DNA of 64,000 nt, from assembly GCA_035690365.1 (NCBI GenBank), contig DASSKP010000078.1, positions 54,337 through 118,336 of the forward strand, given 5' to 3'. The translations under genes were made by a program, and so were the position numbers. The notes under the pieces were generated by a model, which did no database searches, had not been told where the DNA came from, and was given only the letters and a program-made list of their open reading frames with translations. The DNA comes from Mycobacteriales bacterium (lineage in GTDB: Bacteria > Actinomycetota > Actinomycetes > JAFAQI01). Shown piece by piece: positions 38,269 to 63,460 of this stretch (position 1 is the first letter of the stretch; every line of letters begins with the position of its first letter).

Positions 38269-38291
38269 GTCCACGGAAAGGTGCTCCTCGC

Positions 38292-38777: not shown

Positions 38778-39286
38778 GCCGTCCTCCGGTAGCCGAAACC
38801 TGTCCAGGACTCGACGCCGACGAGCTCGCCGCGGTCGTTGCGGTACTCCACGTCGATGACCCAGAAGCGTCCGGTGCCGAGCTTGGTCTGCTTCTCCGGG
38901 CTCACCGAGCGCAGCCGCTGGCAGGTCGAGATGGTGTCGCCGGGGCGCACCGGCTCGTAGAAGGTGATGGTGTTGTCGGTCATCACCGCCTCCGGCAGTC
39001 CGAGCTGTTCCTTGAGGTCGAAGTGCACCTGCAGCGGAAGCCGCTGCACCTCGCGCCCCGGGGCCCAGTGGTGCGGGCGGAACCACGTCGACAGCATCGA
39101 CGGGGGAGCGATCGGCCCTCCGGTCAGCTCGGCGGCAACCTTGTCGTCCCAGAAAAGCGGGTTGCCGTTCTCGACCGACGCGGCCGACGTCCAGATGTAG
39201 CCGCGCTCGACGGGGAACTCGCCCGCCTCTTCGTACTGCATCTGGTCGATGAGTGCCGCGACCTCGGTCGGCAGCTCCTCACTCAT
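38774..39286 (-). CDS. MaoC-like N-terminal hotdog-domain protein (ChsH2-like partner subunit)
   Basis: The start is MSEELPTEVAALIDQ. It is translationally coupled to the neighbouring genes on both sides. Confidence 0.75.
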   Translation of the reverse strand: MSEELPTEVAALIDQMQYEEAGEFPVERGYIWTSAASVENGNPLFWDDKVAAELTGGPIAPPSMLSTWFRPHHWAPGREVQRLPLQVHFDLKEQLGLPEAVMTDNTITFYEPVRPGDTISTCQRLRSVSPEKQTKLGTGRFWVIDVEYRNDRGELVGVESWTGFGYRRTA

Positions 39287-40446
39287 GCGATCACCCCGTC
39301 GGTTCGAAGCTGTGCGATCTCGTCGGCTGTGAAGCCGGCGTCGGTCAGGACCGAGTCGGTGTCGGTGCGGCTGCGGTCCGGCAGGTCGTACGACGTCCTG
39401 CGACTCGCCCCGGCCAGCAGAGGAGCGAGCTGTCGGAACGACTTTTCGCCGGTCGGCGGTTGCGCGGTCGCGACTGCGTCGCGGTCGGTGAACTGTGCGG
39501 CCGACGATGCCTCGGCGGGTGACAGCACGGGGGCGACGCAGGTGTCGGATGCCGCGAGCTCCGCGACCCACTCGTCGCGAGTGCGCGTCGCGAAGCACTT
39601 CGCGAGCTCTGCCCGGACGTCTTCCTGCGCGTCGGCGTCGTACTGCTTGCCGGTCAGCTGCTCGAGCCCGAGCAGCCGGCAGAGGTTGCCCCAGAAGCGC
39701 GGTTCGATCGCCGCGACCGACAGCCACTCGCCGTCGGCGGCGACGTAGGTGTCGTAGCAGGCGTAACGGCCCCCGAGCGGAGCCGTGCCCGGCCCGGGCT
39801 CGCGTCCGGTCGCGAGGTGCTCGTCGACCTGCAGCGCCATCAACGACAGCATGCCGTCGGCGACCGAGACGTCGACGTAGGTCCCGTCACCGGTGTGCTC
39901 GCGCGCGACGAGCGCCGCCAGGATGGCCGTGACGGCATGCAAGCCGCCGCCGGCGCTGTCGGCGACGGTCGCACCGGGCACGGGCGGCTTGCCGCCCTCG
40001 CCTCGCTCGGAGTTGTGCAGGTAACCGGACACGGCGAGGTAGTTGAGGTCGTGACCCGCCCACTGCGACCACGGGCCGGTCTGGCCGTAGCCGCTCGTCG
40101 AGCAGTAGACGATGCGTGGGTTGCGGCTCTTCACGTCGTCGTAGCCGATGCCGAGGCGGGCGACGACGCCGGGACGGAAGCTCTCGAGCACGACGTCGGC
40201 GTGCTCGGTGAGGCGAAGGAACGTCTCGCGGCCGCCGTCGCTCTTGAGATCGAGCTGGATGCGCTGCGTGCCCCGGCCGCCGCTGTAGGCGTGGGCCGGC
40301 GGGGTGAGCTGGGCGCCGGCGTCCTTGGCGAGCGGCGCGACCTTGACGACGCAGGCGCCGTAGTCGGCAAGCCATGCCGCGGCGCGCGCCGAAGGACCGA
40401 CGCTCGACAGGTCGAGCACGGTCGTCTTCGCGAGCGGACCCGGCAT
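39283..40446 (-). CDS. CaiB/BaiF family III CoA-transferase
   Basis: The start is MPGPLAKTTVLDLSSVGPSA. It has family III CoA-transferase motifs and is 388 aa. It corresponds to the C-terminal half of the fused 797-aa track ORF. Confidence 0.85.
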   Translation of the reverse strand: MPGPLAKTTVLDLSSVGPSARAAAWLADYGACVVKVAPLAKDAGAQLTPPAHAYSGGRGTQRIQLDLKSDGGRETFLRLTEHADVVLESFRPGVVARLGIGYDDVKSRNPRIVYCSTSGYGQTGPWSQWAGHDLNYLAVSGYLHNSERGEGGKPPVPGATVADSAGGGLHAVTAILAALVAREHTGDGTYVDVSVADGMLSLMALQVDEHLATGREPGPGTAPLGGRYACYDTYVAADGEWLSVAAIEPRFWGNLCRLLGLEQLTGKQYDADAQEDVRAELAKCFATRTRDEWVAELAASDTCVAPVLSPAEASSAAQFTDRDAVATAQPPTGEKSFRQLAPLLAGASRRTSYDLPDRSRTDTDSVLTDAGFTADEIAQLRTDGVIA

Positions 40447-41627
40447 CAGAAGTTCTTCGGCAGCCCGAGCTTGCGGCGGGCGATGATGTTCTTCTGAACC
40501 TCTGAGGTGCCGCCGCCGATCGTGTCGAGCACGGTGTAGCGGTAGGTCGACTCGGCGCGGCCCTTCATCGGCGCGTCCTCGGTGCCGACCCGCAGCTGGC
40601 TGCCCGGCCCGGCGAGGTCCATCGACGCGTCGGCGAGCTTCTTGGAGAACTCCGTCGCGAACAGCTTGTACTCGCTCGCCTCGGCGGTGGGCGCCGCGCC
40701 GCCCTTCAACGACTTCGCCACGAACCGCAGGCCGAGCATGCGCGCGACCTCTGCTTGCGCGGCGAGCTGTGCGACGCGGCTGCGGATGATCGGGTCGTCC
40801 TTGAGCGGTTTGCCGTCGCGGGTCGCGGTCTGCAGGTGGTCGATGAGCAGGTCGAGCCGCGCCTTGATCGGCGAGAACGTGAACATCGTGAATCGCTCGA
40901 GGTCGAGCGCTTCGGAGATGTACTGGAAGCCGCGGTTGAGCTCGCCGACGACGTAGTCGTCTGACACGAAGACGTCGTCGAAGAAGACCTCGTTGGTGCG
41001 CTCGTCGCCCATCGTCCAGATCGGCTTGATGGTGAGGCCGGGGTGGTCCATCGGCACGAGGAACAGCGTGATGCCGAAGTGCTTCTTCGCCTCCGCGTCG
41101 GTGCGCGCGCCAACCCAGTACCAGTCGGCGAAGTGTGCCGATGTCGTCCAGATCTTCTGTCCGGACAGCACCCAGCCGCCTTCGACCTTGGTGGCCTTCA
41201 GGCTCATCGCGGCGGCGTCGCTGCCGGCGTTGGGCTCGCTGTAGCCGACGGCGAACTCGACCTCGGCGTTGAGGATCTTCGGCAAGAACTCCTGCTTCAG
41301 CTTGTCGCTGCCGTGCCGGAGGATCGTCTTGCCGATGATGCCGACGCCCTTGCCGATCTGCGGCGCTCCGCGACGGGCCAGCGCTTCGTTGAGGAGGTAC
41401 TCGTAGACGCCGTCGCTGTTCTTGCCGCCCCACTCCTCGGGCCAGGTGATGCCGAGCCAGCCGTGGTCGGCCATCTTCTTCATGAAGGCGCGGCGCTCGG
41501 GGGTGTCGACGATCTGCGCCATGTTCTCCCGGGTCGGGTCCGCGATGTCGGGAGTGGCGTGCTCGTCGAGGAACGCCTCTACCTCGGCGAGAAAAGCCTG
41601 CTGCTCGGGCGTGAAGTCGAAGTCCAC
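40446..41627 (-). CDS. Acyl-CoA dehydrogenase
   Basis: The 393-aa protein starts MDFDFTPEQQAFLAEV. Its stop overlaps the CoA-transferase start. Confidence 0.85.
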   Translation of the reverse strand: MDFDFTPEQQAFLAEVEAFLDEHATPDIADPTRENMAQIVDTPERRAFMKKMADHGWLGITWPEEWGGKNSDGVYEYLLNEALARRGAPQIGKGVGIIGKTILRHGSDKLKQEFLPKILNAEVEFAVGYSEPNAGSDAAAMSLKATKVEGGWVLSGQKIWTTSAHFADWYWVGARTDAEAKKHFGITLFLVPMDHPGLTIKPIWTMGDERTNEVFFDDVFVSDDYVVGELNRGFQYISEALDLERFTMFTFSPIKARLDLLIDHLQTATRDGKPLKDDPIIRSRVAQLAAQAEVARMLGLRFVAKSLKGGAAPTAEASEYKLFATEFSKKLADASMDLAGPGSQLRVGTEDAPMKGRAESTYRYTVLDTIGGGTSEVQKNIIARRKLGLPKNF

Positions 41628-41687
41628 TCTGCTCCTCGGGACTCACGGGGACCCAACCCCGCTCGGTCCCGGTCACTCTACGCGGTT

Positions 41688-41704
41688 TCTGACGGGTCGT
41701 CAGA
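41688..41704. promoter_or_regulatory. 17-bp palindrome TCTGACGGGTCGTCAGA (candidate operator)
   Basis: This is a perfect inverted repeat in the divergent ACAD/ACAD intergenic region, 38 nt upstream of ATG 41742. Confidence 0.4.
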
Positions 41705-41741
41705 TTTGGGTCGGGCCACGGCCGTTACGCTCGGCGACGCC

Positions 41742-42806
41742 ATGGACTTCACGTTTTCGCCGGAGCAGCGGGAGCTGCGCGAGGCGGTGCGCGCGCTGGC
41801 CGCCGACCGCTCGCCTTCCGCTCAGGTCCGGACGGCCATGGAGTCCGAGGCGCCGTACGACGCCGCGCTCTGGCGCGTGCTCGGTCAGGAGATGGGGCTG
41901 CTCGGCCTCGGGGTCGACGAGTCCCTGGGCGGAGCCGGCGGAGGCTTCGTCGACGCCGCGGTGGTCGTCGATGAGTCCGGCCGGGCGCTGATACCGGCGC
42001 CGGTGCTGCCGACGCTTGTGGCCGGCCAGGTGCTGGCGCGGGCAGGGAGGCCCGCTGCCGAGGCACTGTCCGGCGTGGTCTCAGGTGAGCAGGTGGCGAC
42101 CGTGGGCATGGCCGGCACCGGCCTGTCCGGTGGCGGCATCGGCTTCGGCGGCGACGCGGGCCTGAGCGGAGTCGTGCCCCACGTCGTGGACGGTGCGGCG
42201 GCGTCGTACATCGTGCTCGCGGGACGCGACGGGTTGTGGCTGGTGCGGCCCGGCGACCGCGGCGTCACGGTGTCGGCGCAGCAGCCGCTCGACCCGACGC
42301 GACGGCAGGCCGTCGTGCGACTGGACAAGGCGCCGGCGGTGGCGCTGGGCGACAGCGCAGCGGCCGATCGCGCGGTCGACGTGCTTCGCGTCGCCTACGC
42401 CGTGGAGTCCGTCGGCATCGCGCGTCGCTGTCTGGAGATGACGGTCGACTACCTCAAGACGAGGGAGCAGTTCGGCCGCGTGATCGGCTCGTTCCAGGCG
42501 CTGCAACATCGGGTTGCGGACATCGCCGTGCAGGTCGAGGCGGCCATGTCGACGGCGTACTACGCGGCCTGGACCGTGGAGGCGTCGCCGGAGGAGCTAC
42601 CGGTCGTCGCGCCACTCGCTCTCGCCGTCTGTGCGGATGCCGCGTGGTATGCGGCTGCCGAGTCGATCCAGCTCCACGGCGGCATCGGCTTCACGTGGGA
42701 GCACGACGCACACCTCTACTTCAAGCGGGCGACCACGACGCGTCTGCTGTTCGGCGATGCGCAGGAGCAGCGCCGCCTCGTGGCAGCACGAGCGCGCCTC
42801 CTGTAG
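41742..42806 (+). CDS. Acyl-CoA dehydrogenase family protein
   Basis: The in-frame ATG (MDFTFSPEQRELREAV) lies inside the longer track ORF. The 354-aa size resembles the shorter, non-catalytic subunit of a heteromeric ACAD. Confidence 0.8.
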   Translation: MDFTFSPEQRELREAVRALAADRSPSAQVRTAMESEAPYDAALWRVLGQEMGLLGLGVDESLGGAGGGFVDAAVVVDESGRALIPAPVLPTLVAGQVLARAGRPAAEALSGVVSGEQVATVGMAGTGLSGGGIGFGGDAGLSGVVPHVVDGAAASYIVLAGRDGLWLVRPGDRGVTVSAQQPLDPTRRQAVVRLDKAPAVALGDSAAADRAVDVLRVAYAVESVGIARRCLEMTVDYLKTREQFGRVIGSFQALQHRVADIAVQVEAAMSTAYYAAWTVEASPEELPVVAPLALAVCADAAWYAAAESIQLHGGIGFTWEHDAHLYFKRATTTRLLFGDAQEQRRLVAARARLL

Positions 42807-42807
42807 G

Positions 42808-43473
42808 TCAGAAGCCGAGCTCGCCCTCGGTCAGCGCCGTCAGCACGTCGTTGAACATGCGCTGCTTGATGACGGCGAGTGTCGCGCTGTCCTTGCCGGC
42901 GAGCCCGCGAACCCGCTCGACGGCGCGGGGTACGACCTCGTCCTCGGCCACGGCCTCGTCCACGAGCCCGGCGGCCAGCGCGTCGTTGCCGCCGTAGCGC
43001 CGACCGGTCGTCATGGCCTCGATCGCTGTCGACGGCGTCAGCTTGCAGCGGATCAGCGCGTCCATCCCCGGCGTGAACGGAATGTGGATGTCGACCTCGG
43101 GCAGGCAGAAGTAGCCCCGGTCCGCGCGCATGACCCGCCAGTCGTGCGCCAGCGCGAGCATCGCTCCTGCGGCGAACACATGGCCCTGGATCGCGGCGAC
43201 CGTCGGGGCCGGGAACGCCAGGATGCGCGCGAACAGACCGTGCACCCGCCGGACGTACGGCGCCAAACCGCCCGGATCCTGCCCGAGCCGGTCCAGGTCG
43301 AGGCCGTTCGAGAAGAACTTCCCAGTGGCCGTCGTCACCAGCGCTCTCGGCTGTGTCGCTTCTACCTCGCCGAGCAGTCTCTCGACGTCATCGAGCCATT
43401 CCGGCGTGAACCGGTTCTCGTCGCTGCCCAGATCGAGAAGGAAGACGTCACTGTCGCGGGAGAGGCTTGGCAC
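42808..43473 (-). CDS. Enoyl-CoA hydratase/isomerase family protein
   Basis: The 221-aa protein has a crotonase fold (AAIQGHVFAAGAMLALAHD). Confidence 0.8.
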   Translation of the reverse strand: MPSLSRDSDVFLLDLGSDENRFTPEWLDDVERLLGEVEATQPRALVTTATGKFFSNGLDLDRLGQDPGGLAPYVRRVHGLFARILAFPAPTVAAIQGHVFAAGAMLALAHDWRVMRADRGYFCLPEVDIHIPFTPGMDALIRCKLTPSTAIEAMTTGRRYGGNDALAAGLVDEAVAEDEVVPRAVERVRGLAGKDSATLAVIKQRMFNDVLTALTEGELGF

Positions 43474-43502
43474 GCGCCGACTCTAGGGCGCACACTCCGT
43501 CC

Positions 43503-43736
43503 ATGAGCGTCTCGCCTCTTCCCGCCCACGGCGGCGTTCACGTCGACGCGCGCGGCGACGGCCGGGCACTACGCGTCTCGGCCCACCCTGAGCTCGGCGT
43601 CGTCACGATCAGCATCTGGCGGGACAACCGCTGCGTCGCCACCCATCAGGTGCCGACGGCGGAGATGCCCGGCTTCATCGGGCTGTTGACCGAGGCGTTG
43701 CTCGATCGCTCCGTGCGGGCGTCCGCGGCCATCTAG
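43503..43736 (+). CDS. Hypothetical small protein
   Basis: It is an in-frame ATG within track ORF 43467..43736. It is not recognised. Confidence 0.3.
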   Translation: MSVSPLPAHGGVHVDARGDGRALRVSAHPELGVVTISIWRDNRCVATHQVPTAEMPGFIGLLTEALLDRSVRASAAI

Positions 43737-43789
43737 GTCAGACTGACGCCGAACCCGTCGATCACGATCGAGTCCTTACTCTTGGCCGG

Positions 43790-44731
43790 GTGTTTCGCCG
43801 CCGGGAGCATCGTCGCGCCGGGCGGGTGGTCCTTCTCTCGACCGACGGGCGGGTGCTGCTCTTCCGCGGCGGCGACCCGGCCCGGCCTGAAGCCGGCACC
43901 TGGTGGGTGACCCCCGGTGGCGGCACCGACCCAGGCGAGAGCACAGTCGAAGCGGCGCGGCGGGAGCTGTTCGAGGAGGCCGGCCTCGACGTGCCGACCG
44001 AGTCTCTCGGCGAAGTGAGATGGCGGCGTCGTATCCGCTTCGAGTTCGGCGGCGGGCGCTACCGGCAGGACGAGGATTACTACCTGCTCTACGGCCCGAG
44101 CTTCGAGGTCGACACGTCACGCTGGTCACCGCTGGAGCGCGAGTCGTTCGTCGAGTCGCGATGGTGGCCCATCGATGAGCTGCGCACGACCAAGGAGCGC
44201 ATCTACCCGCGACAGCTTGCGGACCTTGCGGAAGGCAAGCCGGTCAGGGATCGAAGGCAAGGGCTCGGTGGCATCGCGACCCGGCTTCTCGCCGCCTGGT
44301 CTCTGGTGGTCTTCCTCAACGGGGTCGGCGTGTTCGTGGAGCGCTCGATCGAGGCGCATGTGCTCTCCAACCCCGATCCGCACGCGTGGACCAACCCTTA
44401 TCCCTTCGGGCTCAACATGGGGTTGTTCCTGCTCTGGATCCTGGCCCTGCAGATCGCTGTCGCCGGTCTCGTCCTCGGTCTGGTTGACATCGCCAGGCGC
44501 ACTGTCGGCCGGATCTGGCGCGCGGTCGCTCTCCTCGTCGTCGTGGTCGGTGGCGCGGTCGCCGAGCTGGCTGTTGCCGGCGCTGCCAGCAACTCCGAGC
44601 CGCCGCCCGGCATCTTCTTGCACAGCAGCTGGTTGCACGATGGTCGCCTCAACGGGGTGGTGACGGCGCTGCTGGCGGTGACGGTTGCTGGCTGCTCCGC
44701 GTGGTTGCTCGGCTACTTCCAGCGGAAGTGA
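43790..44731 (+). CDS. NUDIX hydrolase fused to C-terminal multi-pass membrane domain
   Basis: The Nudix box is GGGTDPGESTVEAARRELFEEAGL. The C-terminal 130 aa are hydrophobic, with at least 3 TMs. It has a GTG start. Confidence 0.7.
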   Translation: MFRRREHRRAGRVVLLSTDGRVLLFRGGDPARPEAGTWWVTPGGGTDPGESTVEAARRELFEEAGLDVPTESLGEVRWRRRIRFEFGGGRYRQDEDYYLLYGPSFEVDTSRWSPLERESFVESRWWPIDELRTTKERIYPRQLADLAEGKPVRDRRQGLGGIATRLLAAWSLVVFLNGVGVFVERSIEAHVLSNPDPHAWTNPYPFGLNMGLFLLWILALQIAVAGLVLGLVDIARRTVGRIWRAVALLVVVVGGAVAELAVAGAASNSEPPPGIFLHSSWLHDGRLNGVVTALLAVTVAGCSAWLLGYFQRK

Positions 44732-44967
44732 ACGAAGACCCGGCCGAAGTTGTCCGAGTCCTTCTCCACCCGGTGGTACAGCGCCTTGACGTCCTTCTGC
44801 TCGAGAAACCTCAGGACGTGCTTCTTCAGCTGGCCTGATCCCTTGCCCGGGATGATCTCGACGAGCGGCGCCTTCTTCGCCACGGCCTCGTCGATGATGC
44901 GGCGCAGCGCGCGGTCGATCTCCTCGCCGCGGTTGTAGACGTCGTGGAGGTCGAGCTTGAGCTTCAT
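44713..44967 (-). CDS. Stand-alone Smr-domain protein
   Basis: The 84-aa protein is Lys-rich. Its Smr-like core is LDLHDVYNRGEEIDRALRRIIDEAVAKKAPLVEIIPGKGSG. Its 3' end overlaps the NUDIX 3' end by 19 nt. Confidence 0.7.
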   Translation of the reverse strand: MKLKLDLHDVYNRGEEIDRALRRIIDEAVAKKAPLVEIIPGKGSGQLKKHVLRFLEQKDVKALYHRVEKDSDNFGRVFVHFRWK

Positions 44968-44970
44968 GCG

Positions 44971-45375
44971 CTAGTCGGGCAGCGCTGCGGTGATGTCGAC
45001 CTCGACGAGCTGGCCGGGATAGCCGAGCTGTGCGACACCGAGCAGTGTGCTGGCCGTGCTCAGAGCTGCACCGATCTCAGACCGCGACAAGGCGGTCCAC
45101 ACGAGAGCCAGGTCGGCACGCTCGGTCGACGCGACGTAGATGACAGCGCGTACGACGTCCTCGGGGCTGGCGCCGATGTGCTCGAGGGCGACCGCGATGT
45201 TGTGCGCGACCTGGTTGACCTGCGCGACGAGATCGTCGGGTGCCACGACCATGCCGTCTTCATCGAGCGGGCTCTGTCCGGACAGGTGCGCGTAGCGCTG
45301 CGCCGTCGAGATCGTGACGTGGTGGTAGCCCGGCGTCGGGTGCAGGCCTGGGGGGTTGATCCGCTCGATGGTCAC
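44971..45375 (-). CDS. RidA/YjgF family protein
   Basis: The GTG start overlaps the TetR stop. It has RidA motifs (VNQVAHNIAVALE, AALSTAST). Confidence 0.8.
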   Translation of the reverse strand: MTIERINPPGLHPTPGYHHVTISTAQRYAHLSGQSPLDEDGMVVAPDDLVAQVNQVAHNIAVALEHIGASPEDVVRAVIYVASTERADLALVWTALSRSEIGAALSTASTLLGVAQLGYPGQLVEVDITAALPD

Positions 45376-46025
45376 CGGCGGGGAACCTTCGGCCCGGTCA
45401 CACCCCAGTAGACGAGCCGGATCATGGCTTCGCGAACATCGCCGAACTTGATGTCCCACGCCTCGAAGCCGCTCTGGTGTCCCGCGATCTGCGCGAGCAG
45501 GCCGATGAGCACACCTGCGGTCGCCATCGGGTCGACGTCGTCGTCCGGGTTGAGCTGGCGGATCTCCTCGGCGAGGGCCTTGGTCATGGCGTTGAGCATC
45601 ACCACGCGCAGGTGCCGGAACCGCCGGTCGCCCTCGGTCGAGAGCAGGTCGACGACGCGAAGCGTCGGCCGGTGGGTCCGCCAGAACTCGAGGAACCCGT
45701 CGACCAGCTCCTCCGCACTGTGTACGCCGCCCGCGCCTTTCCAGGTGCGGTTGGAGATCAGCGCGACGAGCTCGCGACCTTCCTCGGCCGTCTGTTCGGC
45801 GACCGCGAGAAGGACCGCCTCGAGATCGACGAAGTATTGGTAGAAGGTCGCCGGGGAGGTGCCGGCTGCACGGGTGATGTCCGTGATCTTCAGATCGCGG
45901 TACGGCGTCTTCGCGAGCAGCGCGATCGTGCAGTCGAGCAGCTTCTGGCGGGTGGCCAGACCACGTCGACCGGGTACGCGGCCGTCGACCGCCCGCAAAG
46001 GTGACACTGCGTCAGACATGGACAC
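45372..46025 (-). CDS. TetR-family transcriptional regulator
   Basis: The N-terminal HTH is TIALLAKTPYRDLKITDITRAAGTSPATFYQYF. Confidence 0.85.
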   Translation of the reverse strand: MSMSDAVSPLRAVDGRVPGRRGLATRQKLLDCTIALLAKTPYRDLKITDITRAAGTSPATFYQYFVDLEAVLLAVAEQTAEEGRELVALISNRTWKGAGGVHSAEELVDGFLEFWRTHRPTLRVVDLLSTEGDRRFRHLRVVMLNAMTKALAEEIRQLNPDDDVDPMATAGVLIGLLAQIAGHQSGFEAWDIKFGDVREAMIRLVYWGVTGPKVPRR

Positions 46026-46034
46026 GACCCGAGC

Positions 46035-46793
46035 CTAACCGTTGGAAGTGGACGAAGCCGTGAGGAACGTCGGTGGCTCGCCGCCCCCGTGGATGGCGAG
46101 GTCGGCGCCGGTGACGAACGCCGCCTCGGGCGACGCGAGGAACAGGCAGGCGGCCGCGACGTCCGACGGCTGCACCATCCGTCCCATGGGCACCGCGGCT
46201 CCCACAGCCGCGACACCGGCTGCGTCGCCGTAGTGCAGCTCCGCCTGCTCGGTCTCGAGGTAGCCGACGGTGACGAGGTTGACCCGCACCTTCGGCGCCC
46301 ACTCCATCGCCAGCGACTGGGTCAGGTTGGCGAGTCCCGCCTTCGCGGCGCCGTACGCCGCTGTGCCGGGGGAGGGACGCGTGCCGGAGAGGCTGCCGAT
46401 GTTGATGATGACGCCGCCGTCGTCCTGCTTCTGCATGACGGCGTTGGCGCGCTGGGCGACGTAGAACGGCGCGAGCAGGTTGAGCGCGACGATCTTCTCG
46501 ACGAAGCGTGGCGATGCCTGCGCCGCTTCGGCCGGCGGTGAGCCGCCCGCGTTGTTGACCACCACGTCGAGCCGGCCGAACCGGTCGACCGCGGCGTCGA
46601 CGACGCCGGCGGCCTGTCCGGGGTCGCGCAGGTCGGCGGCGACGAACTCGCCGGCGACCGGGCCGGCCGGCGCGTTGCGCGCGCACACCAGCACCTGGGC
46701 GCCGGCTGCGGCGAAAGCCTCCGCGATGCCGCGGCCGAGGCCTTTGGTGCCGCCGGTGACGAGCACGGCGCGACCGGTGAGGGCATGTGTCAC
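46035..46793 (-). CDS. SDR-family oxidoreductase
   Basis: The Rossmann motif is VLVTGGTKGLGRGIA. The catalytic motif is YGAAKAG. Confidence 0.85.
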   Translation of the reverse strand: MTHALTGRAVLVTGGTKGLGRGIAEAFAAAGAQVLVCARNAPAGPVAGEFVAADLRDPGQAAGVVDAAVDRFGRLDVVVNNAGGSPPAEAAQASPRFVEKIVALNLLAPFYVAQRANAVMQKQDDGGVIINIGSLSGTRPSPGTAAYGAAKAGLANLTQSLAMEWAPKVRVNLVTVGYLETEQAELHYGDAAGVAAVGAAVPMGRMVQPSDVAAACLFLASPEAAFVTGADLAIHGGGEPPTFLTASSTSNG

Positions 46794-46814
46794 CCGTATA
46801 TGGTGACACCCGAA

Positions 46815-46831
46815 TCTGACGTCGTGTCAGA
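46815..46831. promoter_or_regulatory. 17-bp palindrome TCTGACGTCGTGTCAGA (candidate operator)
   Basis: It lies in the divergent SDR / echA20-like intergenic region, 41 nt upstream of the TTG start at 46872. Confidence 0.4.
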
Positions 46832-46871
46832 AAGCCTGCGGTCGCGGCAGCGGAGCGAGGGAAATTCAGCC

Positions 46872-47642
46872 TTGGGCATCAGCAGCAGCGTCAGCGAGCA
46901 CGTCGCCGAGGTCGTCGTCGACGTGCCGCCGGTCAACGCCCTGCCCGTCGCAGGCTGGTTCGAGCTCGCCGACGTGATCACGCGTGCGGGTGCCGATCCC
47001 GACGTCCGGGCAGTGGTCCTGGCGGCCGAGGGCAAGGGTTTCAACGCCGGGGTCGACATCAAGGAGATGCAGTCGACCGACGGCTTCACGGCGCTCGTCG
47101 GAGCCAACCGAGGCTGCTACGCGGCGTTCGCCGCGGTCTACGAGTGCCCGGTGCCGGTGATCGCCGCGGTGCACGGTTTCTGCCTCGGCGGCGGCATCGG
47201 GCTCGCCGGCAACGCCGACATCATCATCGCGTCGGACGACGCGACTTTCGGCCTGCCCGAGGTTAAGCAGGGCGCGCTCGGCGCCGCGACGCACCTGTCG
47301 CGGCTCGTGCCCCAGCACCGGATGCGACACATGGTCTACACCGCCGAGCGCGCGACAGCGCAAGAGCTGGCGTCGTACGGCAGCGTGCTGAAGGTCGTCC
47401 CGCGCGACGAGCTTCGGGCGGCGGCGCGCGAGGTCGCGCTGCAGATCGCCTCGGTCGACCCGGTCGTCATGCGGGCGGCGAAGGAGTCGCTCAACGGCAT
47501 CGACCCGGTCGACGTCCGGCGCTCCTACCGCTTCGAGCAGGGATTCACCTTCGAGCTCAACCTCACCGGTGCGAGCGACAAGGCGCGCGATGCGTTCGTC
47601 GACAAGCGCGAGCAGTGGGCCAAGGACGAGGGCAAGGGCTAG
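46872..47642 (+). CDS. Enoyl-CoA hydratase (EchA20-like)
   Basis: It has a crotonase fold, and from memory its sequence closely matches mycobacterial EchA20 (AEGKGFNAGVDIKEMQSTDGFTAL...GLPEVKQGALGAATHLSRLVPQH). The TTG start follows GAGGGA. Confidence 0.8.
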   Translation: MGISSSVSEHVAEVVVDVPPVNALPVAGWFELADVITRAGADPDVRAVVLAAEGKGFNAGVDIKEMQSTDGFTALVGANRGCYAAFAAVYECPVPVIAAVHGFCLGGGIGLAGNADIIIASDDATFGLPEVKQGALGAATHLSRLVPQHRMRHMVYTAERATAQELASYGSVLKVVPRDELRAAAREVALQIASVDPVVMRAAKESLNGIDPVDVRRSYRFEQGFTFELNLTGASDKARDAFVDKREQWAKDEGKG

Positions 47643-47644
47643 CG

Positions 47645-48511
47645 GTGCCGGACAAGAGAACGACGATCGACGAGGTCGTCGGCGAGCTGCGCGACGGCAT
47701 GACCATCGGCATCGGCGGCTGGGGGTCGCGGCGCAAGCCGATGGCACTGATCCGCGCGCTCTGCCGGTCGTCGGTCAAGGACCTGACGGTCGTCTCCTAC
47801 GGCGGACCCGACGTCGGGCTCCTCTGCGCGACCGGCAAGGTGCGCAAGGTCGTTTTCGCGTTCGTGTCGCTCGACTCGATCGCCCTCGAGCCGCACTTCC
47901 GCACCGCGATGCAGACCGGCGCCGTCGAGACGCTTCAGCTCGACGAAGGAATGTTCCTGCTCGGCCTGCAGGCCGCAGCGTGGCGCGTGCCGTTCCTGCC
48001 GACGCGTGTCGGGCTCGGCTCGGACGTGGTCGAGCGGCAACGCGACGAGATCCGCACCGTCGTGTCGCCGTACGACGACCCGGAGACGGGCGAGGCCGAA
48101 GAGCTCGTCGCCATGCCGGCGCTGCGGCTGGACGTCGCGCTCGTCCACCAGAACCGCGCCGATGCCGGCGGCAACGCGCAGTTCCTCGGCCCGGACCTCT
48201 ATTTCGACGACCTGATGTGCCAGGCGGCGAAGCGCTCGTTCGTCACGTGCGAGCGAATCGTCGACACCGACGACCTGCTCAAGGAAGGCTCACACCACAC
48301 GTTGCGGATCAGCCGGCTGTGGACCGACGGCGTCGTCGAGACGCCCAACGGCGCGCACTTCACCTCGTGCGTTCCCGACTACGAGCGCGACGAGGCCTTC
48401 CAGAAGGAGTACGCCGCCAGCGCGAAGTCGCCGGAGGCCTGGCAGGAGTGGCGCACGGCCTGGCTCGACCTCGACGAGGACGGCTACCAGCGGAAGTTGG
48501 CGTCGCGATGA
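47645..48511 (+). CDS. CoA-transferase alpha subunit (IpdA-like)
   Basis: The GTG start is 3 nt after the ech stop. It has a glutaconate/3-oxoacid CoA-transferase subunit A fold. Confidence 0.8.
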   Translation: MPDKRTTIDEVVGELRDGMTIGIGGWGSRRKPMALIRALCRSSVKDLTVVSYGGPDVGLLCATGKVRKVVFAFVSLDSIALEPHFRTAMQTGAVETLQLDEGMFLLGLQAAAWRVPFLPTRVGLGSDVVERQRDEIRTVVSPYDDPETGEAEELVAMPALRLDVALVHQNRADAGGNAQFLGPDLYFDDLMCQAAKRSFVTCERIVDTDDLLKEGSHHTLRISRLWTDGVVETPNGAHFTSCVPDYERDEAFQKEYAASAKSPEAWQEWRTAWLDLDEDGYQRKLASR

Positions 48512-49281
48512 CGACGACGACTGACGCATCGGGCTCGGCGTCCGCGACCGCAGGGGTGCGCAGAGCCGACGTGTGCTGCGTCGCGATCGCCGAGTGCTTC
48601 CGGGGCGACGGGGAGATCGTCGCCAACCCGATCGGCACGATCCCGCGCATCGGCGGCCTGCTCGCCCGCGCGTCGTTCGAGCCCGACCTCGTCATGACCG
48701 ACGGCGAAGCGATGTTCAGCAACGCCGACGGCGTCGTCGAGGCGTGGAACCCCTACCGCTCGATGTTCGACGTCGTCTGGTCCGGTCGCCGTCACGTCAT
48801 CATGGGCGGCAGCCAGATCGACGCCATGGGCAACCAGAACTTCGCCGCGATCGGCGACATGAAGCATCCGAAGGTGCAGCTGCTCGGCTTCCGCGGTGCA
48901 CCGGGCAACACGGCCAACAACGTCACGTCCTACTGGGTGCCGGCGCACGGACCGCGTGTCCTCGTCCCGCAGGTCGACGTCGTGACCGGCATCGGCTACG
49001 ACCGCGCTGCTGCGGCTGGAGCCGCGGCGACGCGCTACCACTCGGTGCGGTTCGTCGTGACCAACCTCGCCGTGCTCGACTTCGAGACGCCGGACCACCG
49101 AATGCAGCTGCGTTCCGTGCACCCGGGCGTGACGGTCGACGACGTCGTTGCCGCGACCGGCTTCGAGCTCGTCGTCCCGGCTGACGTGCCGGAGTCGAGG
49201 ACGCCGACCGAGGCCGAGCTCGCGTTGCTCGAGCAGATCGACCCGGCGGGCGAGCGCTTCGCCGAGGTCCCCGATGCCTGA
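48508..49281 (+). CDS. CoA-transferase beta subunit (IpdB-like)
   Basis: Its ATG overlaps the alpha-subunit stop (ATGA). It corresponds to the C-terminal part of the 570-aa track ORF. Confidence 0.8.
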   Translation: MTTTTDASGSASATAGVRRADVCCVAIAECFRGDGEIVANPIGTIPRIGGLLARASFEPDLVMTDGEAMFSNADGVVEAWNPYRSMFDVVWSGRRHVIMGGSQIDAMGNQNFAAIGDMKHPKVQLLGFRGAPGNTANNVTSYWVPAHGPRVLVPQVDVVTGIGYDRAAAAGAAATRYHSVRFVVTNLAVLDFETPDHRMQLRSVHPGVTVDDVVAATGFELVVPADVPESRTPTEAELALLEQIDPAGERFAEVPDA

Positions 49282-50338
49282 CGCACTGGCGCCGATCGCG
49301 ACGCGGCTGACCGAGCTCTTCGGCATCCGCTACCCGATCGTCCAGACCGGCATGGGATGGGTCGCGACCCCACAGCTCGCCGCCGCGACGTCCGCGGCCG
49401 GCGGCCTCGGGATCCTCGCCGCCGCGACGATGTCGCTCGACGAGCTCCGTCGCGCGGTGAAAGAGGTACGCGAGCGCACCGACGCGCCGTACGGCGTCAA
49501 CATGCGCGCCGACCAGCCGGACGTCGTCGAACGGGTCGACCTGCTGATCCGCGAGGGTGTGCGGGTGGCGTCGTTCGCGATGGCGCCGAAGCAGGACCTG
49601 ATCAAGCGACTGCACGACGGCGGCGTGCTCGTGATGCCGTCGATCGGCGCGAAGCGTCACGCCGAGAAAGTCGCCGCGTGGGGCGTCGACGCGGTGCTCG
49701 TGCAGGGTGGTGAAGGCGGTGGCCACACCGGCTCGGTGCCGACGACACTGCTGCTGCCGCAGGTCGTCGACACCGTCGACGTACCCGTCGTCGCTGCCGG
49801 CGGCTTCTTCGACGGCCGAGGTCTGGTCGCCGCGCTGTCCTACGGCGCGAGTGGTGTCGCAATGGGCACGCGCTTCCTGCTGACGGCCGACAGTCCCGTG
49901 CCGGAGGCGGTCAAGCGGCACTACCTGTCCAAGTCGGTCACCGACACCGTCGTGACGAAGCAGGTCGACGGCGTGCCGCACCGAGTCCTGCGCAGTGATC
50001 TGGTCGACAGCCTCGAGTCGGCCGGCACGACGCGTCGGTTCGCCGGCGCGGTCCGCAGTGCGCTCGCGTTCCAGCGGCTGTCCGGCACGCCGTGGCGCGA
50101 CATGGTCCGGGAGGGCCGCGCCATGCGCCGCACTCAGGAGCTGAGCTGGAGCCAGGTGCTGATGGCGGCCAACACCCCGATGCTGCTGCGGGCGGCGATG
50201 GTCGACGGGCGTGACGACCTCGGCGTGATGGCGGCCGGGCAGGTGGTCGGCCTCATCGACGATCTGCCGACGTGCGACGAGCTGATCCGCCGCATCGTGA
50301 CGCAGGCGCACGACGTGCTGGCGGGTCTTCCGGCCTGA
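49274..50338 (+). CDS. Nitronate monooxygenase / NAD(P)H-dependent flavin oxidoreductase family (Rv3553-like)
   Basis: It has an FMN TIM-barrel with the motifs YPIVQTGMGWVA and GGEGGGH. Its start overlaps the upstream gene by 8 nt. Confidence 0.8.
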   Translation: MPDALAPIATRLTELFGIRYPIVQTGMGWVATPQLAAATSAAGGLGILAAATMSLDELRRAVKEVRERTDAPYGVNMRADQPDVVERVDLLIREGVRVASFAMAPKQDLIKRLHDGGVLVMPSIGAKRHAEKVAAWGVDAVLVQGGEGGGHTGSVPTTLLLPQVVDTVDVPVVAAGGFFDGRGLVAALSYGASGVAMGTRFLLTADSPVPEAVKRHYLSKSVTDTVVTKQVDGVPHRVLRSDLVDSLESAGTTRRFAGAVRSALAFQRLSGTPWRDMVREGRAMRRTQELSWSQVLMAANTPMLLRAAMVDGRDDLGVMAAGQVVGLIDDLPTCDELIRRIVTQAHDVLAGLPA

Positions 50339-50342
50339 CCGC

Positions 50343-51227
50343 TCAGGCGATCGCGGCGATGACCCGCGTGAGGGCGCGGATCGTCTCCTCGTTGATCGGC
50401 GTCACGACGAGAATCGCCTCGTCGACGCGGGCGTCGGCGAACGCCTGAAGCTGCTCGGCGATCCGCTCCGCCGACCCTGTGACCGGCGGGGTCGAGGCGG
50501 AGATCGGCCGGGTCGGCTCTCCCTCGTCGAGCACGACCTGCACGGTCGCGCTACGCCAGACCTCGCTCGGCTCTCGACCGATCTCCCGGAGGATCGCCGT
50601 GACGCGGTCGTTCTCGCGGGTGAAGCCGTCAGGGGTGTTGCCGAACCAGTCGTACCAGATGTTCCAGCCGTCGAGGTGTGGCAGCGCGGCGCGCAGCACC
50701 CGCTCGCCGGTCGATCCGACCATCAGCGCGGGTCGGGTGGCGGGCGCCGGCAGGAGTACGGCGTCTTGCAGGCCGCCGGCGTTGCCGTCGGTCGTCACTC
50801 GCTCGCCGGCCAGAAGCAGCCGAATGGTGTCGAAAGCCTCGACGAAGCGTGCGGCGCGGCGGTCGTAGGGCACGCCGAAGGCGCGGAACTCCGTTTCGTT
50901 CCAGCCGGCGCCGAGACCGAGCACGAGCCGGCCGCCGCTGATCTCCTGGACCGCCGCAGCCCGGCGGGCGAGCAGCCACGGCGGGCCGAACGCCGTACAG
51001 GAGACGAGCGGACCGAGCCGGACCGTCTGGGTGGCGGCCGCGAGCCCGGCCAGCAGCGACCAGGCGTCCCACGGGCCACGCTCCTCGCGGCCGTCGTCGC
51101 GATAGAGGAGATGGTCGCCGATCCAGATCGAGTCGAAGCCGCCCTCCTCGGCGGCCCGGGCCATGGCGACGTACTCCGGCCAGCGCACGAGCCGCTCGAC
51201 CTCCGGAAGCTGGACACCCCATCGCAC
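50343..51227 (-). CDS. LLM-class (luciferase-like) flavin/F420-dependent oxidoreductase
   Basis: It has a bacterial luciferase-like TIM-barrel (FDSIWIGDHLL, LGLGAGW). Confidence 0.8.
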   Translation of the reverse strand: MRWGVQLPEVERLVRWPEYVAMARAAEEGGFDSIWIGDHLLYRDDGREERGPWDAWSLLAGLAAATQTVRLGPLVSCTAFGPPWLLARRAAAVQEISGGRLVLGLGAGWNETEFRAFGVPYDRRAARFVEAFDTIRLLLAGERVTTDGNAGGLQDAVLLPAPATRPALMVGSTGERVLRAALPHLDGWNIWYDWFGNTPDGFTRENDRVTAILREIGREPSEVWRSATVQVVLDEGEPTRPISASTPPVTGSAERIAEQLQAFADARVDEAILVVTPINEETIRALTRVIAAIA

Positions 51228-52083: not shown

Positions 52084-53265
52084 TCACCCGGACGTCGCCG
52101 CGAGCGCGTCCGACCAGCTCGTGCCCGCCGCGAGCAGGGGGTTGAGCTTCATCACCTGTCCCGCCGATCGCAGCCCGAAGACGCCGCCGAGCAGGTCGCC
52201 GGACCGGACGAGCGCGACCCACTTCGGATCGTCGAACGACCCGCGTACGACGGCGATCTCGTCTCCGGCCCCGGCGAAACCCAGGCACTGGAGCTTGGCG
52301 TCGTACTGGTCGGACCAGAAGTAGGGCACCGGGTCGAAGTCTGCGGGGTCGCCGCAGATGCCGCGCGCCACGTGGTCGGGTTGCTCGCTCGCGTTGGTCC
52401 AGTGCTCGAGGCGCACGGTGCGACCGAGGCGGGCCGACTGCCATCTGCAGACGTCGCCGACCGCCCAGACGCCTGGCGCGGCCTGCAGCGTCGCGTCACA
52501 CACGACGCCGTCGTCGATGGGGAGGCCGGAGCCGTCCAGCCAGCTCGTCGACGGCGCGACGCCGATGCCGACCACGACCACATCGGCGGGGAGCTGCGTG
52601 CCGTCGGTGAGAGTCACTTCCTCGACCTGGGCCTCGCCGCTGACCTGCGCGACGCCGACGCCACAGCGGATGTCGACCCCGTGCTCGGCGTGCAGCCGGC
52701 CGATCGCCTCGCCGACCTTGACGTCGAGGACACGCGCGAGCGGCGCGGCGAGGATGTCGACGACGGTGACGTGCGCCCCGCGGGCACGAGCGCTCGCCGC
52801 GACCTCGAGGCCGATGAAGCCGGCGCCCACGATGACGACACGAGTGCCTTCGTCCAGCTCGTCGCGCAGGGCGGCGCAGTCGTCGAGAGTGCGCAACGTG
52901 TGCACCCCTCGCAACCAGACTCCGGGCAACGTGCGCGGCTGCGCGCCGGTGGCGATGACGAGGTCGTCGTACGTGATCGTGGTGCCGTCGTCGAGGTCGA
53001 GCTGGCGGTTGGGTGGGCGCAGAGCCGTTGCGCGAACTCCCAGCCGTAGCGCGACGTCGAGCGCTGCCAGCTCACCACTGCTGCGCAGGGTCGCGGTCGA
53101 CGGATGCTTGTCGCCACGGAGCACCTCCTTCGACAGCGGAGGGCGGCTGTAGGGCGAGTGCTTCTCCTCACCGAGGAGAACGATGTCGCCGTCGTAGCCG
53201 CGGCGGCGCAGCGCCTCGCACGTGCGTACGCCGGCCAGTCCTGCTCCGACGACGACGACGGTCAC
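52084..53265 (-). CDS. FAD-dependent pyridine nucleotide-disulfide oxidoreductase (ferredoxin reductase-type)
   Basis: It has a GxGxxG motif at the N-terminus (VVVVGAGLAG) and a second one mid-protein (VVIVGAGFIGLE). Confidence 0.8.
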   Translation of the reverse strand: MTVVVVGAGLAGVRTCEALRRRGYDGDIVLLGEEKHSPYSRPPLSKEVLRGDKHPSTATLRSSGELAALDVALRLGVRATALRPPNRQLDLDDGTTITYDDLVIATGAQPRTLPGVWLRGVHTLRTLDDCAALRDELDEGTRVVIVGAGFIGLEVAASARARGAHVTVVDILAAPLARVLDVKVGEAIGRLHAEHGVDIRCGVGVAQVSGEAQVEEVTLTDGTQLPADVVVVGIGVAPSTSWLDGSGLPIDDGVVCDATLQAAPGVWAVGDVCRWQSARLGRTVRLEHWTNASEQPDHVARGICGDPADFDPVPYFWSDQYDAKLQCLGFAGAGDEIAVVRGSFDDPKWVALVRSGDLLGGVFGLRSAGQVMKLNPLLAAGTSWSDALAATSG

Positions 53266-54161
53266 GTGGTCTGCAGGTCAGGCTGCTTTCCCGCGACCAT
53301 CCGCCGGAAGCCCTCGCGCCAGCCGATCGTGGTGTGTCCGATGAGCTCGTGCATGCGGGTGAGGTCGAGGCAGACGCTCGCGAGCGACTGGTCGCTGGCG
53401 ACGAGCTTCGGTGTCACGCCGGTGAGCTCGCCGAGGTACGCCGTCCACTCCTCGACGCTCACGCGCTCGTCGCCGCCCCAGTTGGTGATGGTCGCAGGCA
53501 CGCTTGCGACATCGAGGAGCTTGGGCACCGTCGCGACGATGTCCTCGGAGTGGATCGGGTGGAACTCGCTCGGCGCGTCCGGGTGGACCGCGACCTCCTG
53601 GCCGCTCTGCATCAGCGCGAGGTGGAACATCGGCCAGCCCCAGCCGTCGCCGTAGGGCACGTTGAGGCGGGCGATCGTCGTCGGGAGGTTGTAGCGCCGG
53701 GCGCCGTGGCGGGCCGCTGCCTCGGCGGCGATCTTGCAGATGGAGTAGGTCGGCAGGAAGTAGTTGCGGTGGCTGTCGCCGAGCGGGGAGTCCTCGGTGA
53801 AGGCGGTGTGGCCGTCGGGCTGGTAGACGGCAGTGGTGCTGCAGTGCAGGAAGGCGCGGGCGTCGGCGTACTTCTCCATCAGCAACGCGAGGCCGCCGAC
53901 GTTGCCGTCGAGGTCGACGCCCCATTTCTGGCTCTTCACGACGGCGAAGTGCAGGACGTAGTCGACGCTGTCCGGCAGGTCGCTCAGGTCACCCTTGACC
54001 AGGTCGAGGCGCGCCGTCTTCACGCCGGCGGCGTGCAGCGGGTCGCGGGCTGCGTCGTCGCGGAAGCGGGCGGCACCGATGACCTCGTGCTCTTTGGCCA
54101 GTGCTTCGGCCACGGGACGCGCGACGTCACTCGTGACGCCCGTGACGAGATACCGCGCCAT
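53262..54161 (-). CDS. NAD-dependent epimerase/dehydratase family protein
   Basis: It has an N-terminal Rossmann fold (YLVTGVTSDVARPVAEALAKEHEV). Confidence 0.8.
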   Translation of the reverse strand: MARYLVTGVTSDVARPVAEALAKEHEVIGAARFRDDAARDPLHAAGVKTARLDLVKGDLSDLPDSVDYVLHFAVVKSQKWGVDLDGNVGGLALLMEKYADARAFLHCSTTAVYQPDGHTAFTEDSPLGDSHRNYFLPTYSICKIAAEAAARHGARRYNLPTTIARLNVPYGDGWGWPMFHLALMQSGQEVAVHPDAPSEFHPIHSEDIVATVPKLLDVASVPATITNWGGDERVSVEEWTAYLGELTGVTPKLVASDQSLASVCLDLTRMHELIGHTTIGWREGFRRMVAGKQPDLQTT

Positions 54162-54186: not shown

Positions 54187-54203
54187 TCTGACGACCCGTC
54201 AGA
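54187..54203. promoter_or_regulatory. 17-bp palindrome TCTGACGACCCGTCAGA (candidate operator)
   Basis: This is a perfect inverted repeat 26 nt upstream of the epimerase start on the minus strand. Confidence 0.4.
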
Positions 54204-58412: not shown

Positions 58413-58433
58413 CGGAACGTCTCCCGGAGATGG

Positions 58434-59552: not shown

Positions 59553-59571
59553 CGCCTCGTCCTCTTCACTC

Positions 59572-63443: not shown

Positions 63444-63460
63444 TCTGAGGAGGCGTCAGA
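63444..63460. promoter_or_regulatory. 17-bp palindrome TCTGAGGAGGCGTCAGA (candidate operator, one arm mismatch)
   Basis: It lies in the 58-bp divergent region between GH5 (start 63401) and the partial hydrolase gene (ATG 63460). An extra inverted half-site pair, GTCAGAAATCTGA, lies immediately upstream. Confidence 0.35.

Follow-up and report, generated by a model that had tools for sequence, protein, structure and literature searches.

An ipd operon and its divergent unit

The window analysed here, a 64-kb stretch of contig DASSKP010000078.1 (~70% GC, 6.2% non-coding), comes from an uncultured soil actinobacterium that different sources label Mycobacteriales or Frankiales. It carries a four-gene operon, echA20-ipdA-ipdB-ipdC, whose products resemble the enzymes of the methylhexahydroindanedione propionate (HIP) or C/D-ring branch of steroid catabolism, and a divergent unit that begins with genes for a short-chain dehydrogenase/reductase (SDR) and a TetR-family regulator (coordinates in Table 1). 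A preliminary description of this DNA had proposed four genes of these sizes with translationally coupled starts, and a codon-bias gene map and direct translation both recovered all four open reading frames (ORFs) at the same coordinates. The junctions are indeed tight: the TAG stop of echA20 is followed after 2 nt by the GTG of ipdA, ipdA and ipdB share an ATGA overlap, and ipdB and ipdC overlap by 8 nt. With third-position GC contents of 0.79-0.90 in a 70% GC background, the four frames are coding and not chance ORFs. The TTG start of echA20 is supported by a curated profile that aligns residue 5 with model position 6, and by relatives that have ATG, GTG or TTG at the equivalent position, encoding (M)GI(S/T). 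A 66.8-kb soil metagenome contig of the Joint Genome Institute (JGI; 3300039444) is identical to the window and its independent gene calls give the same four sizes; the IpdC protein of the window also occurs in farmland assemblies. The divergent SDR-TetR-RidA-Smr unit of the preliminary description was likewise located, with all four genes on the minus strand.

The PDB matches identify the coenzyme A (CoA)-transferase-like pair as IpdAB and not as a generic paralogue. In PDB sequence searches (identities computed over aligned regions), IpdA matched the Rhodococcus jostii chain 6CO6_A with E 1.2e-101 (58% identity) and the Mycobacterium tuberculosis chain 6CON_A with E 2.2e-95 (54% identity), and IpdB matched 6CO6_B of R. 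jostii with E 1.8e-69 (50% identity) and 6CON_B of M. tuberculosis with E 4.1e-60. The next-best PDB match of either subunit was glutaconate CoA-transferase (2e-25 for IpdA, 2e-16 for IpdB), so that the best true CoA-transferase trails by 76 and 53 orders of magnitude in E-value. The preliminary description had read the pair as IpdAB and had named generic, low-identity CoA-transferase paralogues as the contrary case; these scores bear out the former. Pfam CoA_trans was found on both subunits. PDB entries 6COJ and 6CO6 differ at a single aligned position, a Glu-to-Ala change in the motif MDEGM, which is also present in the M. tuberculosis protein, and the window IpdA keeps this Glu as E101 (LQLDEGMF). 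We take the residue changed in 6COJ to be the catalytic Glu105; Crowe and colleagues reportedly ascribed a catalytic role to this Glu of IpdA in 2018. The window pair thus resembles the IpdAB COCHEA-CoA hydrolase (PDB 6CO6, 6CO9, 6COJ, 6CON) in its two-subunit class-I CoA-transferase fold, its full-length alignment and the retained Glu, whereas 42-50% of the residues differ and the activity is predicted from sequence.

The remaining genes of the operon fit the same assignment. EchA20 passes the NCBIfam equivalog model PRK07938 with 416.6 bits (cut-off 260), the next crotonase model giving 218 bits and all other crotonase models remaining below their own cut-offs; Pfam ECH_1 gives 151 bits. IpdC carries the Pfam nitronate monooxygenase (NMO) domain (295 bits) and is 67% identical to a Rhodococcus sp. 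copy; its nearest solved proteins are FabK enoyl reductases (1e-56), which are likewise given as the nearest for IpdC/Rv3553 (Crowe et al. 2017, PMC5380842). The mycobacterial order is Rv3548c, Rv3549c / echA20, ipdA, ipdB, ipdC (Crowe et al. 2017, PMC5380842; Kendall et al. 2010, PMC3068626), and the order in the window equals the Rv3549c-Rv3553 arrangement except for its single SDR. The likeness to the mycobacterial and Rhodococcus core that the preliminary description had pointed out therefore stands, and the five-gene module is kept across 80 genomes.

These 80 genomes hold the best 80 of at least 593 confirmed IpdA relatives retrieved in a scan of one genome per species, and neighbours were counted as homologues of window genes adjoining ipdA. 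IpdB lies beside ipdA in 77/80 loci (median identity 58%), the SDR in 71/80 (59%), IpdC, after ipdB, in 70/80 (61%) and EchA20, directly upstream, in 60/80 (71%). Among the matches listed, the closest IpdA belongs to an uncultured 'Frankiaceae' metagenome-assembled genome (MAG; 85% identity), the other relatives, which include Acidimicrobiia, Streptomyces, Salinispora, Rhodococcus, Actinomadura and Myxococcota, being at most 72% identical. The large and the small subunit of an acyl-CoA dehydrogenase (ACAD) are encoded near ipdA in 46/80 and 27/80 loci, respectively, and 25/80 have a neighbouring thiolase, one representative of which passes PRK07850 (the 'steroid 3-ketoacyl-CoA thiolase' model). 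A TetR of the window type occurs in only one of the 80 loci (L005; individual loci and contigs are designated by L numbers), and RidA and Smr genes are beside ipdA in none of them.

A metagenome scan with TetR as the query gave 45 contigs. In every contig with enough flank and a TetR at least 72% identical, ipdC-ipdB-ipdA-echA20 is divergent from SDR-TetR, the SDR having gone in L099. Since the SDR is absent from the divergent unit of two relatives, L099 and L005, it is dispensable in the context of the cluster. An apparent remnant of the SDR N-terminal coding region was seen by eye at ~5780-6000 of L099; the corresponding region of L005 is 9139-9249.

The TetR_C_38 regulator and the 17-bp palindrome

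The regulator encoded next to the SDR has TetR_N and TetR_C_38 domains, and we propose it as the repressor of the cluster. Wherever a soil contig is informative and its TetR at least 72% identical, the gene of this regulator adjoins the module, and it does so as well in L005, L130 and L131. KstR2 (4W97) gave no match to this protein at E <=1e-3 in the PDB sequence search. An AlphaFold model of the regulator (pLDDT 89.6) is all-helical with EthR as the best fold match (TM 0.75); several acyl-CoA-sensing TetRs are among its top 50 fold matches, and KstR2 is not among these 50. None of the intergenic regions of the window contains the KstR2 operator AnCAAGnnCTTGnT (Kendall et al. 2010, PMC3068626), whose sole match in the 64 kb has one mismatch and lies inside a gene at 51954. 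That the operator differs from that of KstR2, as the preliminary description had it, is thus correct: AnCAAGnnCTTGnT is missing from the SDR/echA20 spacer, which contains another palindrome. On the basis that the regulator and operator features of KstR2 are lacking, the locus would function like the KstR2 core and yet lie outside that regulon.

The resemblance to the KstR2 regulon extends to the gene order, the divergent layout and the tight coupling of the four genes, to the presence of a TetR-type repressor gene in the cluster, and to palindromic operators in two divergent spacers, one between SDR and echA20 and the other before ACAD genes. By contrast, the window regulator belongs to the TetR_C_38 family, with no detectable specific similarity to KstR2, and the operator is TCTGACG-N3-CGTCAGA and not AnCAAGnnCTTGnT. 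Moreover, the window cluster has one SDR where the KstR2 system has two, and it has no fadD3, fadA6 or ipdF but a family-III CoA-transferase, a MaoC pair and three ACAD genes.

The 17-bp palindrome occurs in the window at four sites with at most 2 mismatches, versus 0.2 expected, and all four fall within the 6.2% non-coding part (P ~1.5e-5). The core TCTGA-N7-TCAGA of the site upstream of echA20 (O1) is invariant in 15 distinct related SDR/echA20 spacers, in which the centre and the flanks vary, and L005 has a copy with 1 mismatch (CCTGA...) in the same geometry. Similarly, the 17-mer in the divergent ACAD spacer (OA) is identical in the equivalent spacer of L092, L099, L101, L103 and L130, and the L131 spacer has a variant at one central base together with a second copy with 1 mismatch. 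At L131 11708-11751, two operator copies stand in tandem, 27 nt apart, in this divergent spacer. Of 27 distinct sequences, 20 carry a related motif, TCTGAY-N5-RTCA, at the TetR start or immediately in front of it (background 0.01-0.05 per 105 nt), and as its position and frame vary, it is conserved at the DNA level.

The motif also accompanies distant relatives of the regulator. In contigs with TetR_C_38 homologues only 35-39% identical, it precedes operons of the order ACAD-large, ACAD-small, SDR, TetR that contain no ipd genes, and it is also found beside SDR, luciferase-like and amidohydrolase genes. The motif is therefore tied to the protein family and not to the ipd genes. At 51 genome loci with an adjoining echA20, counting sites within 200 nt upstream with at most 1 mismatch, the palindrome precedes echA20 in 22 (background 0.009 per 210 nt), a KstR2-type box in 6, both in 0 and neither in 23. 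We regard the conservation and positional specificity of the palindrome as established, and the TetR_C_38 protein as its presumptive binder. A literature search returned no TCTGACG-N3-CGTCAGA motif, nor is there such a motif in a systematic study of mycobacterial TetR regulators.

Some further elements surround O1. In the window and in L090, ~30 extra nt including a GAGGGA Shine-Dalgarno sequence separate the operator from the echA20 start (window 46832-46871), and most relatives have only 9-12 nt from operator to start, a short distance that suggests a very short leader. The O1 core is preceded by a conserved block, GTATATGGTGACA, that holds a TANNNT-type -10 candidate, TATGGT. This block is contained in a perfect inverted repeat (GTGTCACC-N7-GGTGACAC) whose right half is conserved in most relatives and whose left arm is conserved in part. 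We demoted the repeat as an operator, because its left arm is only partly conserved and overlaps the SDR start codon; it may be a -10 element or an accessory site. A scan for sigma-70 promoters and terminators gave nothing useful in this high-GC region.

A larger cluster and the other genes of the window

The genes belonging to the module extend well beyond the operon. In contigs with a TetR 72-79% identical (L092, L099, L101, L103), a divergent ACAD-small/ACAD-large pair follows the TetR gene, and in L109, which falls in the same range, only the small subunit is visible; the large subunit is 80-87% identical in related soil contigs. Two contigs, L130 (a 382-kb NCBI MAG contig) and L131 (a 108-kb JGI contig), contain a compact 12-gene cluster in the order ipdC, ipdB, ipdA, echA20 / SDR, TetR / ACAD-small / ACAD-large, family-III CoA-transferase, MaoC, MaoC, ACAD, and in L036 and L038 an ACAD-MaoC-MaoC-CoA-transferase-ACAD block, 59-77% identical, directly follows ipdC. 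The same genes are present in the window, where a stretch comprising a second enoyl-CoA hydratase, orf77, a NUDIX protein, Smr and RidA genes comes between the TetR gene and the ACAD pair. Since this stretch is absent there in L099, L101, L130 and L131, window 42808-45375 is a recent lineage-specific insertion and 37147-50338 the conserved unit. The RidA-like gene occurs only in contigs with a TetR at least 90% identical, and the Smr gene is confined to L086 and L088, the closest contigs; NUDIX and Smr are convergent genes with a 19-nt overlap. Thus the preliminary description was right about the four genes and the divergent unit, but the functional unit reaches upstream to 37147, and RidA and Smr, which it had described as riding with the regulator, do so in the window and its closest relatives but not where TetR is less than 90% identical.

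The large and small ACAD subunits, encoded side by side, are closest to the structures of heteromeric alpha2beta2 ACADs (M. tuberculosis 4X28; Thermomonospora curvata Tcur3481/3483, 6WY8), with the difference that the two window genes are divergently transcribed. We presume 4X28 to be ChsE4-ChsE5; its PDB records say only 'acyl-CoA dehydrogenase'. There is likewise a resemblance to IpdE1-IpdE2 (= FadE30-FadE33), in that IpdE2 is the best curated model for the small subunit, albeit with a score below the equivalog cut-off. The MaoC pair is kept in L036, L038, L048, L052, L054, L130 and L131. For its 170-aa member, the sole subunit searched, the ChsH1-ChsH2 MaoC hydratase provides the only PDB matches and thus the only solved relatives, but the similarity is weak (~2e-6 with ChsH1 + ChsH2). 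As a review table (PMC8399759) names no known HIP side-chain hydratase for R. jostii, the MaoC pair may be a candidate for this step.

Table 1. Genes and putative regulatory sites of the window (e-values are from PDB searches, bit scores from Pfam or NCBIfam models)
Feature	Position	Strand	Evidence or remark
echA20-type crotonase, predicted ring-D (HIEC-CoA) hydrolase	46872-47642	+	TTG start, 256 aa
ipdA, predicted alpha subunit of ring-C (COCHEA-CoA) hydrolase	47645-48511	+	GTG start, 288 aa
ipdB, predicted beta subunit of ring-C hydrolase	48508-49281	+	ATG start, 257 aa
ipdC-type NMO/FabK-like flavin mononucleotide (FMN) reductase	49274-50338	+	ATG start, 354 aa
SDR, Rv3549c/Rv3548c-type, candidate hydroxyacyl-CoA dehydrogenase	46035-46793	-	NCBIfam equivalog PRK07856, 381 bits (cut-off 255)
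TetR-family regulator (TetR_N + TetR_C_38), proposed cluster repressor	45372-46025	-	Pfam PF19352, 159.7 bits
ACAD small subunit, IpdE2-like	41706-42806	+	6WY8_A 3.8e-38, 4X28_D 2.2e-27
ACAD large subunit, first gene of five-gene operon	40446-41627	-	4X28_A 9.1e-59, 6WY8_B 4.3e-55
Family-III CoA-transferase	39283-40446	-	Pfam CoA_transf_3, 288 bits; kept in L036, L038, L130, L131
MaoC/hot-dog hydratase subunits, 170 aa + 157 aa	38774-39286 + 38292-38765	-	Pfam FAS1_DH_region and MaoC
Third ACAD, last gene of five-gene operon	37147-38274	-	Pfam ACAD domains; 65% identical in L036, L038; present in L130, L131
RidA-like protein	44971-45375	-	Pfam Ribonuc_L-PSP, 61.6 bits; 4-nt overlap with TetR gene
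Small Smr-domain protein	44713-44967	-	Pfam Smr, 58.8 bits; 3-nt gap to RidA-like gene
Second enoyl-CoA hydratase	42808-43473	-	Pfam
orf77	43503-43736	+	in insertion
NUDIX protein with membrane tail	43826-44731	+	Pfam
Epimerase-like SDR	53262-54161	-	operon with ferredoxin-NAD+ reductase, putative operator 54187-54203
Ferredoxin-NAD+ reductase	52084-53265	-	HcaD/AndAa-like, 288 bits, below cut-off
Secreted glycoside hydrolase family 5 (GH5) protein	61878-63401	-	only curated match endoglycoceramidase I, 253 bits (cut-off 700)
543-aa secreted protein, GHSLG serine-hydrolase motif	60194-61825	-	no family match; after GH5 gene
Putative operator O1 TCTGACGTCGTGTCAGA	46815-46831		40 nt upstream of echA20 start
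Putative operator OA TCTGACGGGTCGTCAGA	41688-41704		perfect 7-bp arms; in 78-nt divergent ACAD spacer
Perfect operator copy	54187-54203		25 nt upstream of epimerase-like SDR/ferredoxin-NAD+ reductase operon
Operator copy TCTGAGGAGGCGTCAGA	63444-63460		43 nt upstream of GH5 endoglycoceramidase-like gene
Half-degenerate operator copy TCTGACGCAGTGTCACC (TCTGAC-N5-GTCAnn)	46000-46016	-	overlaps first codons of TetR gene
Perfect inverted repeat GTGTCACC-N7-GGTGACAC	46787-46809		contains GTATATGGTGACA; left arm overlaps SDR start codon

Two of the four palindromes lie outside the cluster (Table 1). The one before the epimerase-like SDR and ferredoxin-NAD+ reductase genes suggests an electron-transfer partner of an oxygenase in the same regulon, and we speculate that the one before the GH5 gene points to a link with the harvesting of glycolipids or steryl glycosides. 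Window 57309-60141 (minus strand) encodes an Rv3169-family protein (490 bits), an APH-type kinase and a TetR_C_11 regulator, and beside the ipd cluster of L130 there are genes of matching Pfam architecture (TetR_C_11, APH and a 368-aa protein without a Pfam match) along with an epimerase-like one, which suggests a conserved linkage of these genes with the ipd cluster. A luciferase-like monooxygenase (LLM)-type oxidoreductase at 50343-51227 was left out of the cluster, as it is not of the Rv3520c family and has no operator, and a high-GC3 ORF at 40957-41244 (plus strand), antisense to the ACAD large-subunit gene, was dismissed as a shadow ORF typical of high-GC DNA. Window 1-23733 is a housekeeping block (radical SAM protein, RNase E/G, L21, L27, Obg, ProB, GuaB-like IMPDH, ProA, NadD, RsfS and a CsoR-type metal repressor), followed by genes for an MMPL transporter and then a 604-aa acyl-CoA synthetase.

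Proposed function, alternatives and significance

We think it probable that the locus is a catabolic cluster for the C/D rings (HIP branch) that is controlled by the TetR_C_38 protein and the palindrome, and not by KstR2. IpdC as a reductase, EchA20 as the ring-D hydrolase and IpdAB as the ring-C retro-Claisen hydrolase would convert a bicyclic CoA thioester to an open-chain, methyl-branched dicarboxyl-CoA. The divergent SDR, the heteromeric ACAD, the MaoC pair, the third ACAD and the family-III CoA-transferase would provide beta-oxidation-type steps before and after ring opening, although we infer the assignment of individual steps, as well as the identity of the effector. The TetR_C_38 repressor would bind the palindrome in both divergent promoter regions, at the start of its own gene, which would result in autoregulation, and at two further promoters of the window, and a CoA thioester of the pathway would release it from the operator. 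The heteromeric ACAD, hydratase and dehydrogenase for the HIP side chain are likewise found in the scd cluster of Comamonas testosteroni (ScdA, ScdC1C2, ScdD, ScdE, ScdF, ScdK, ScdY, ScdL1L2), where ScdK/ScdY/ScdL1L2, the equivalents of IpdC/EchA20/IpdAB, come next (PMC8399759; TA441 preprint). That cluster differs in being proteobacterial, in including an ATP-dependent ligase (ScdA) and a thiolase (ScdF) and in its regulation.

Several observations weigh against this interpretation. The small ACAD subunit reaches 232 bits with the IpdE2 model, below the cut-off of 450. The top 120 database matches of EchA20 are all soil MAG proteins with generic names, and the comparisons made for EchA20 and IpdC did not include Rv3550 and Rv3553 themselves. 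The predicted fold of the regulator is generic and not firm about the ligand. Within the 64-kb window there are no ring A/B genes (kshA, hsaA-D, kstD), tblastn found no FadA6-like thiolase, and the annotation, made without reference sequences for these two, showed no recognisable FadD3- or IpdF-like gene; neither was a FadD3-type ligase, a FadA6-type thiolase or an IpdF-type SDR found in the compact clusters of L130 and L131. The left 37 kb of the window is housekeeping (RNase E, L21, L27, Obg, ProB, ProA, NadD, RsfS).

These gaps leave room for the view that the host is no steroid degrader and that the substrate of the cluster is an alicyclic or methyl-branched cyclic acid other than a steroid (from terpenoids or hopanoids, for instance), broken down with recruited hydrolases of the IpdAB/EchA20 type, a view that we consider rather unlikely. 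Besides the missing ring A/B genes and fadD3, fadA6 and ipdF equivalents, it could appeal to the departure of the regulator and operator from the KstR2 system, to two components foreign to the canonical KstR2 regulon, the family-III CoA-transferase and the MaoC pair, to the distant TetR_C_38 homologues with ACAD/SDR/luciferase-like/amidohydrolase operons devoid of ipd genes, and to IpdA homologues 60-72% identical in Acidimicrobiia and Myxococcota, groups in which we know of no demonstrated steroid degradation. A 2026 TA441 preprint also warns that ScdL1/ScdY homologues need cluster context before they are assigned. However, the window IpdA is 54-58% identical to the biochemically characterised proteins and keeps the Glu that was mutated, and the five genes are arranged exactly as in M. 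tuberculosis. Proteins at loci with KstR2 boxes are 53-70% identical to those of the window (53-70% at L059, with an exact KstR2-type box, and 60-68% at L035 of Salinispora, whose box has one mismatch). Neighbours typical of cholesterol clusters stand beside the module in L005 and L036. At 2998-6271 of L005, the closest MAG, directly upstream of ACAD-ACAD-TetR-echA20-ipdA, these are an Rv3520c-family F420 oxidoreductase (430 bits, cut-off 335), a CasI/FadD17-like acyl-CoA ligase (below both cut-offs) and an HsaB-like flavin reductase (219 bits, cut-off 230), none of which is present in the window; in L036, they are proteins that pass the lipid-transfer/thiolase-domain models PRK07937 and PRK08313 and that we take to be of the Ltp4/Ltp3 type. 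Finally, every characterised steroid degrader is reported to have HIP catabolic genes (PMC5380842), and we found no non-steroid IpdAB substrate in the literature consulted. On balance, a steroid origin of the substrate is reasonably likely, and we are more confident that IpdAB, EchA20 and IpdC act as predicted ring-opening enzymes on an HIP-type CoA thioester.

The regulatory half of the proposal has its main weakness in the genome loci: 21 of the 22 loci with the palindrome before echA20 have no TetR_C_38 gene within 10 kb, L005 being the only one that does, and another binder is therefore possible there. The palindrome could then be real but bound by a different regulator, with TetR_C_38 controlling something else or another site, such as the GTCACC-N7-GGTGAC repeat. 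The second conserved block, GTATATGGTGACA, adjoining the operator would suit such a view, as would the fact that binding of the palindrome by TetR is a sequence-based proposal. We nonetheless judge it improbable, because the motif accompanies TetR_C_38 genes even at 35-39% identity and in operons without ipd genes, because 20 of 27 sequences have a copy at the TetR start or in front of it, independently of frame, and because every informative soil contig has both TetR and palindrome. As for the idea that the four genes are mere crotonase, CoA-transferase and NMO paralogues of fatty-acid or ketone-body metabolism, the Pfam and NCBIfam names are indeed generic for both CoA-transferase-like subunits and the beta subunit matches no NCBIfam model. 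Yet the 76 and 53 orders of magnitude that separate the pair from true CoA-transferases, the conserved Glu, the equivalog-level match of the hydratase and the conservation of the five-gene module across 80 genomes already refute it, and we give it next to no credence.

The enzymology of a C/D-ring cluster under TetR_C_38 control is that of the known HIP branch, and the known pathway chemistry is unchanged. In the literature searched, we found neither the TetR_C_38/TCTGACG-N3-CGTCAGA system, nor its breadth (22/51 loci), nor the compact 12-gene cluster with CoA-transferase and MaoC pair. A broader proposition, which we advance only tentatively and would not bet on, is that in a large part of the non-mycolate Actinomycetota C/D-ring catabolism is governed not by KstR2 but by a TetR_C_38 repressor and TCTGACG-N3-CGTCAGA, which control a compact cluster in which the MaoC pair fills the HIP side-chain hydratase step and the family-III CoA-transferase replaces the ATP-dependent FadD3, with a regulon that reaches the ferredoxin reductase operon and the secreted endoglycoceramidase-like glycosidase.

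Aerobic and anaerobic routes of steroid degradation both end in the HIP or C/D-ring branch. Our results suggest that the module reaches far beyond the well-studied mycolate bacteria into uncultured Actinomycetota of soil and sea, and that in many of these another repressor and operator control it, the 17-bp palindrome serving as a simple sequence marker for predicting the regulon in MAGs. Within the cluster, the MaoC pair is a candidate for the HIP side-chain hydratase that is still missing for actinobacteria, and the family-III CoA-transferase offers a testable alternative to FadD3 for substrate activation.

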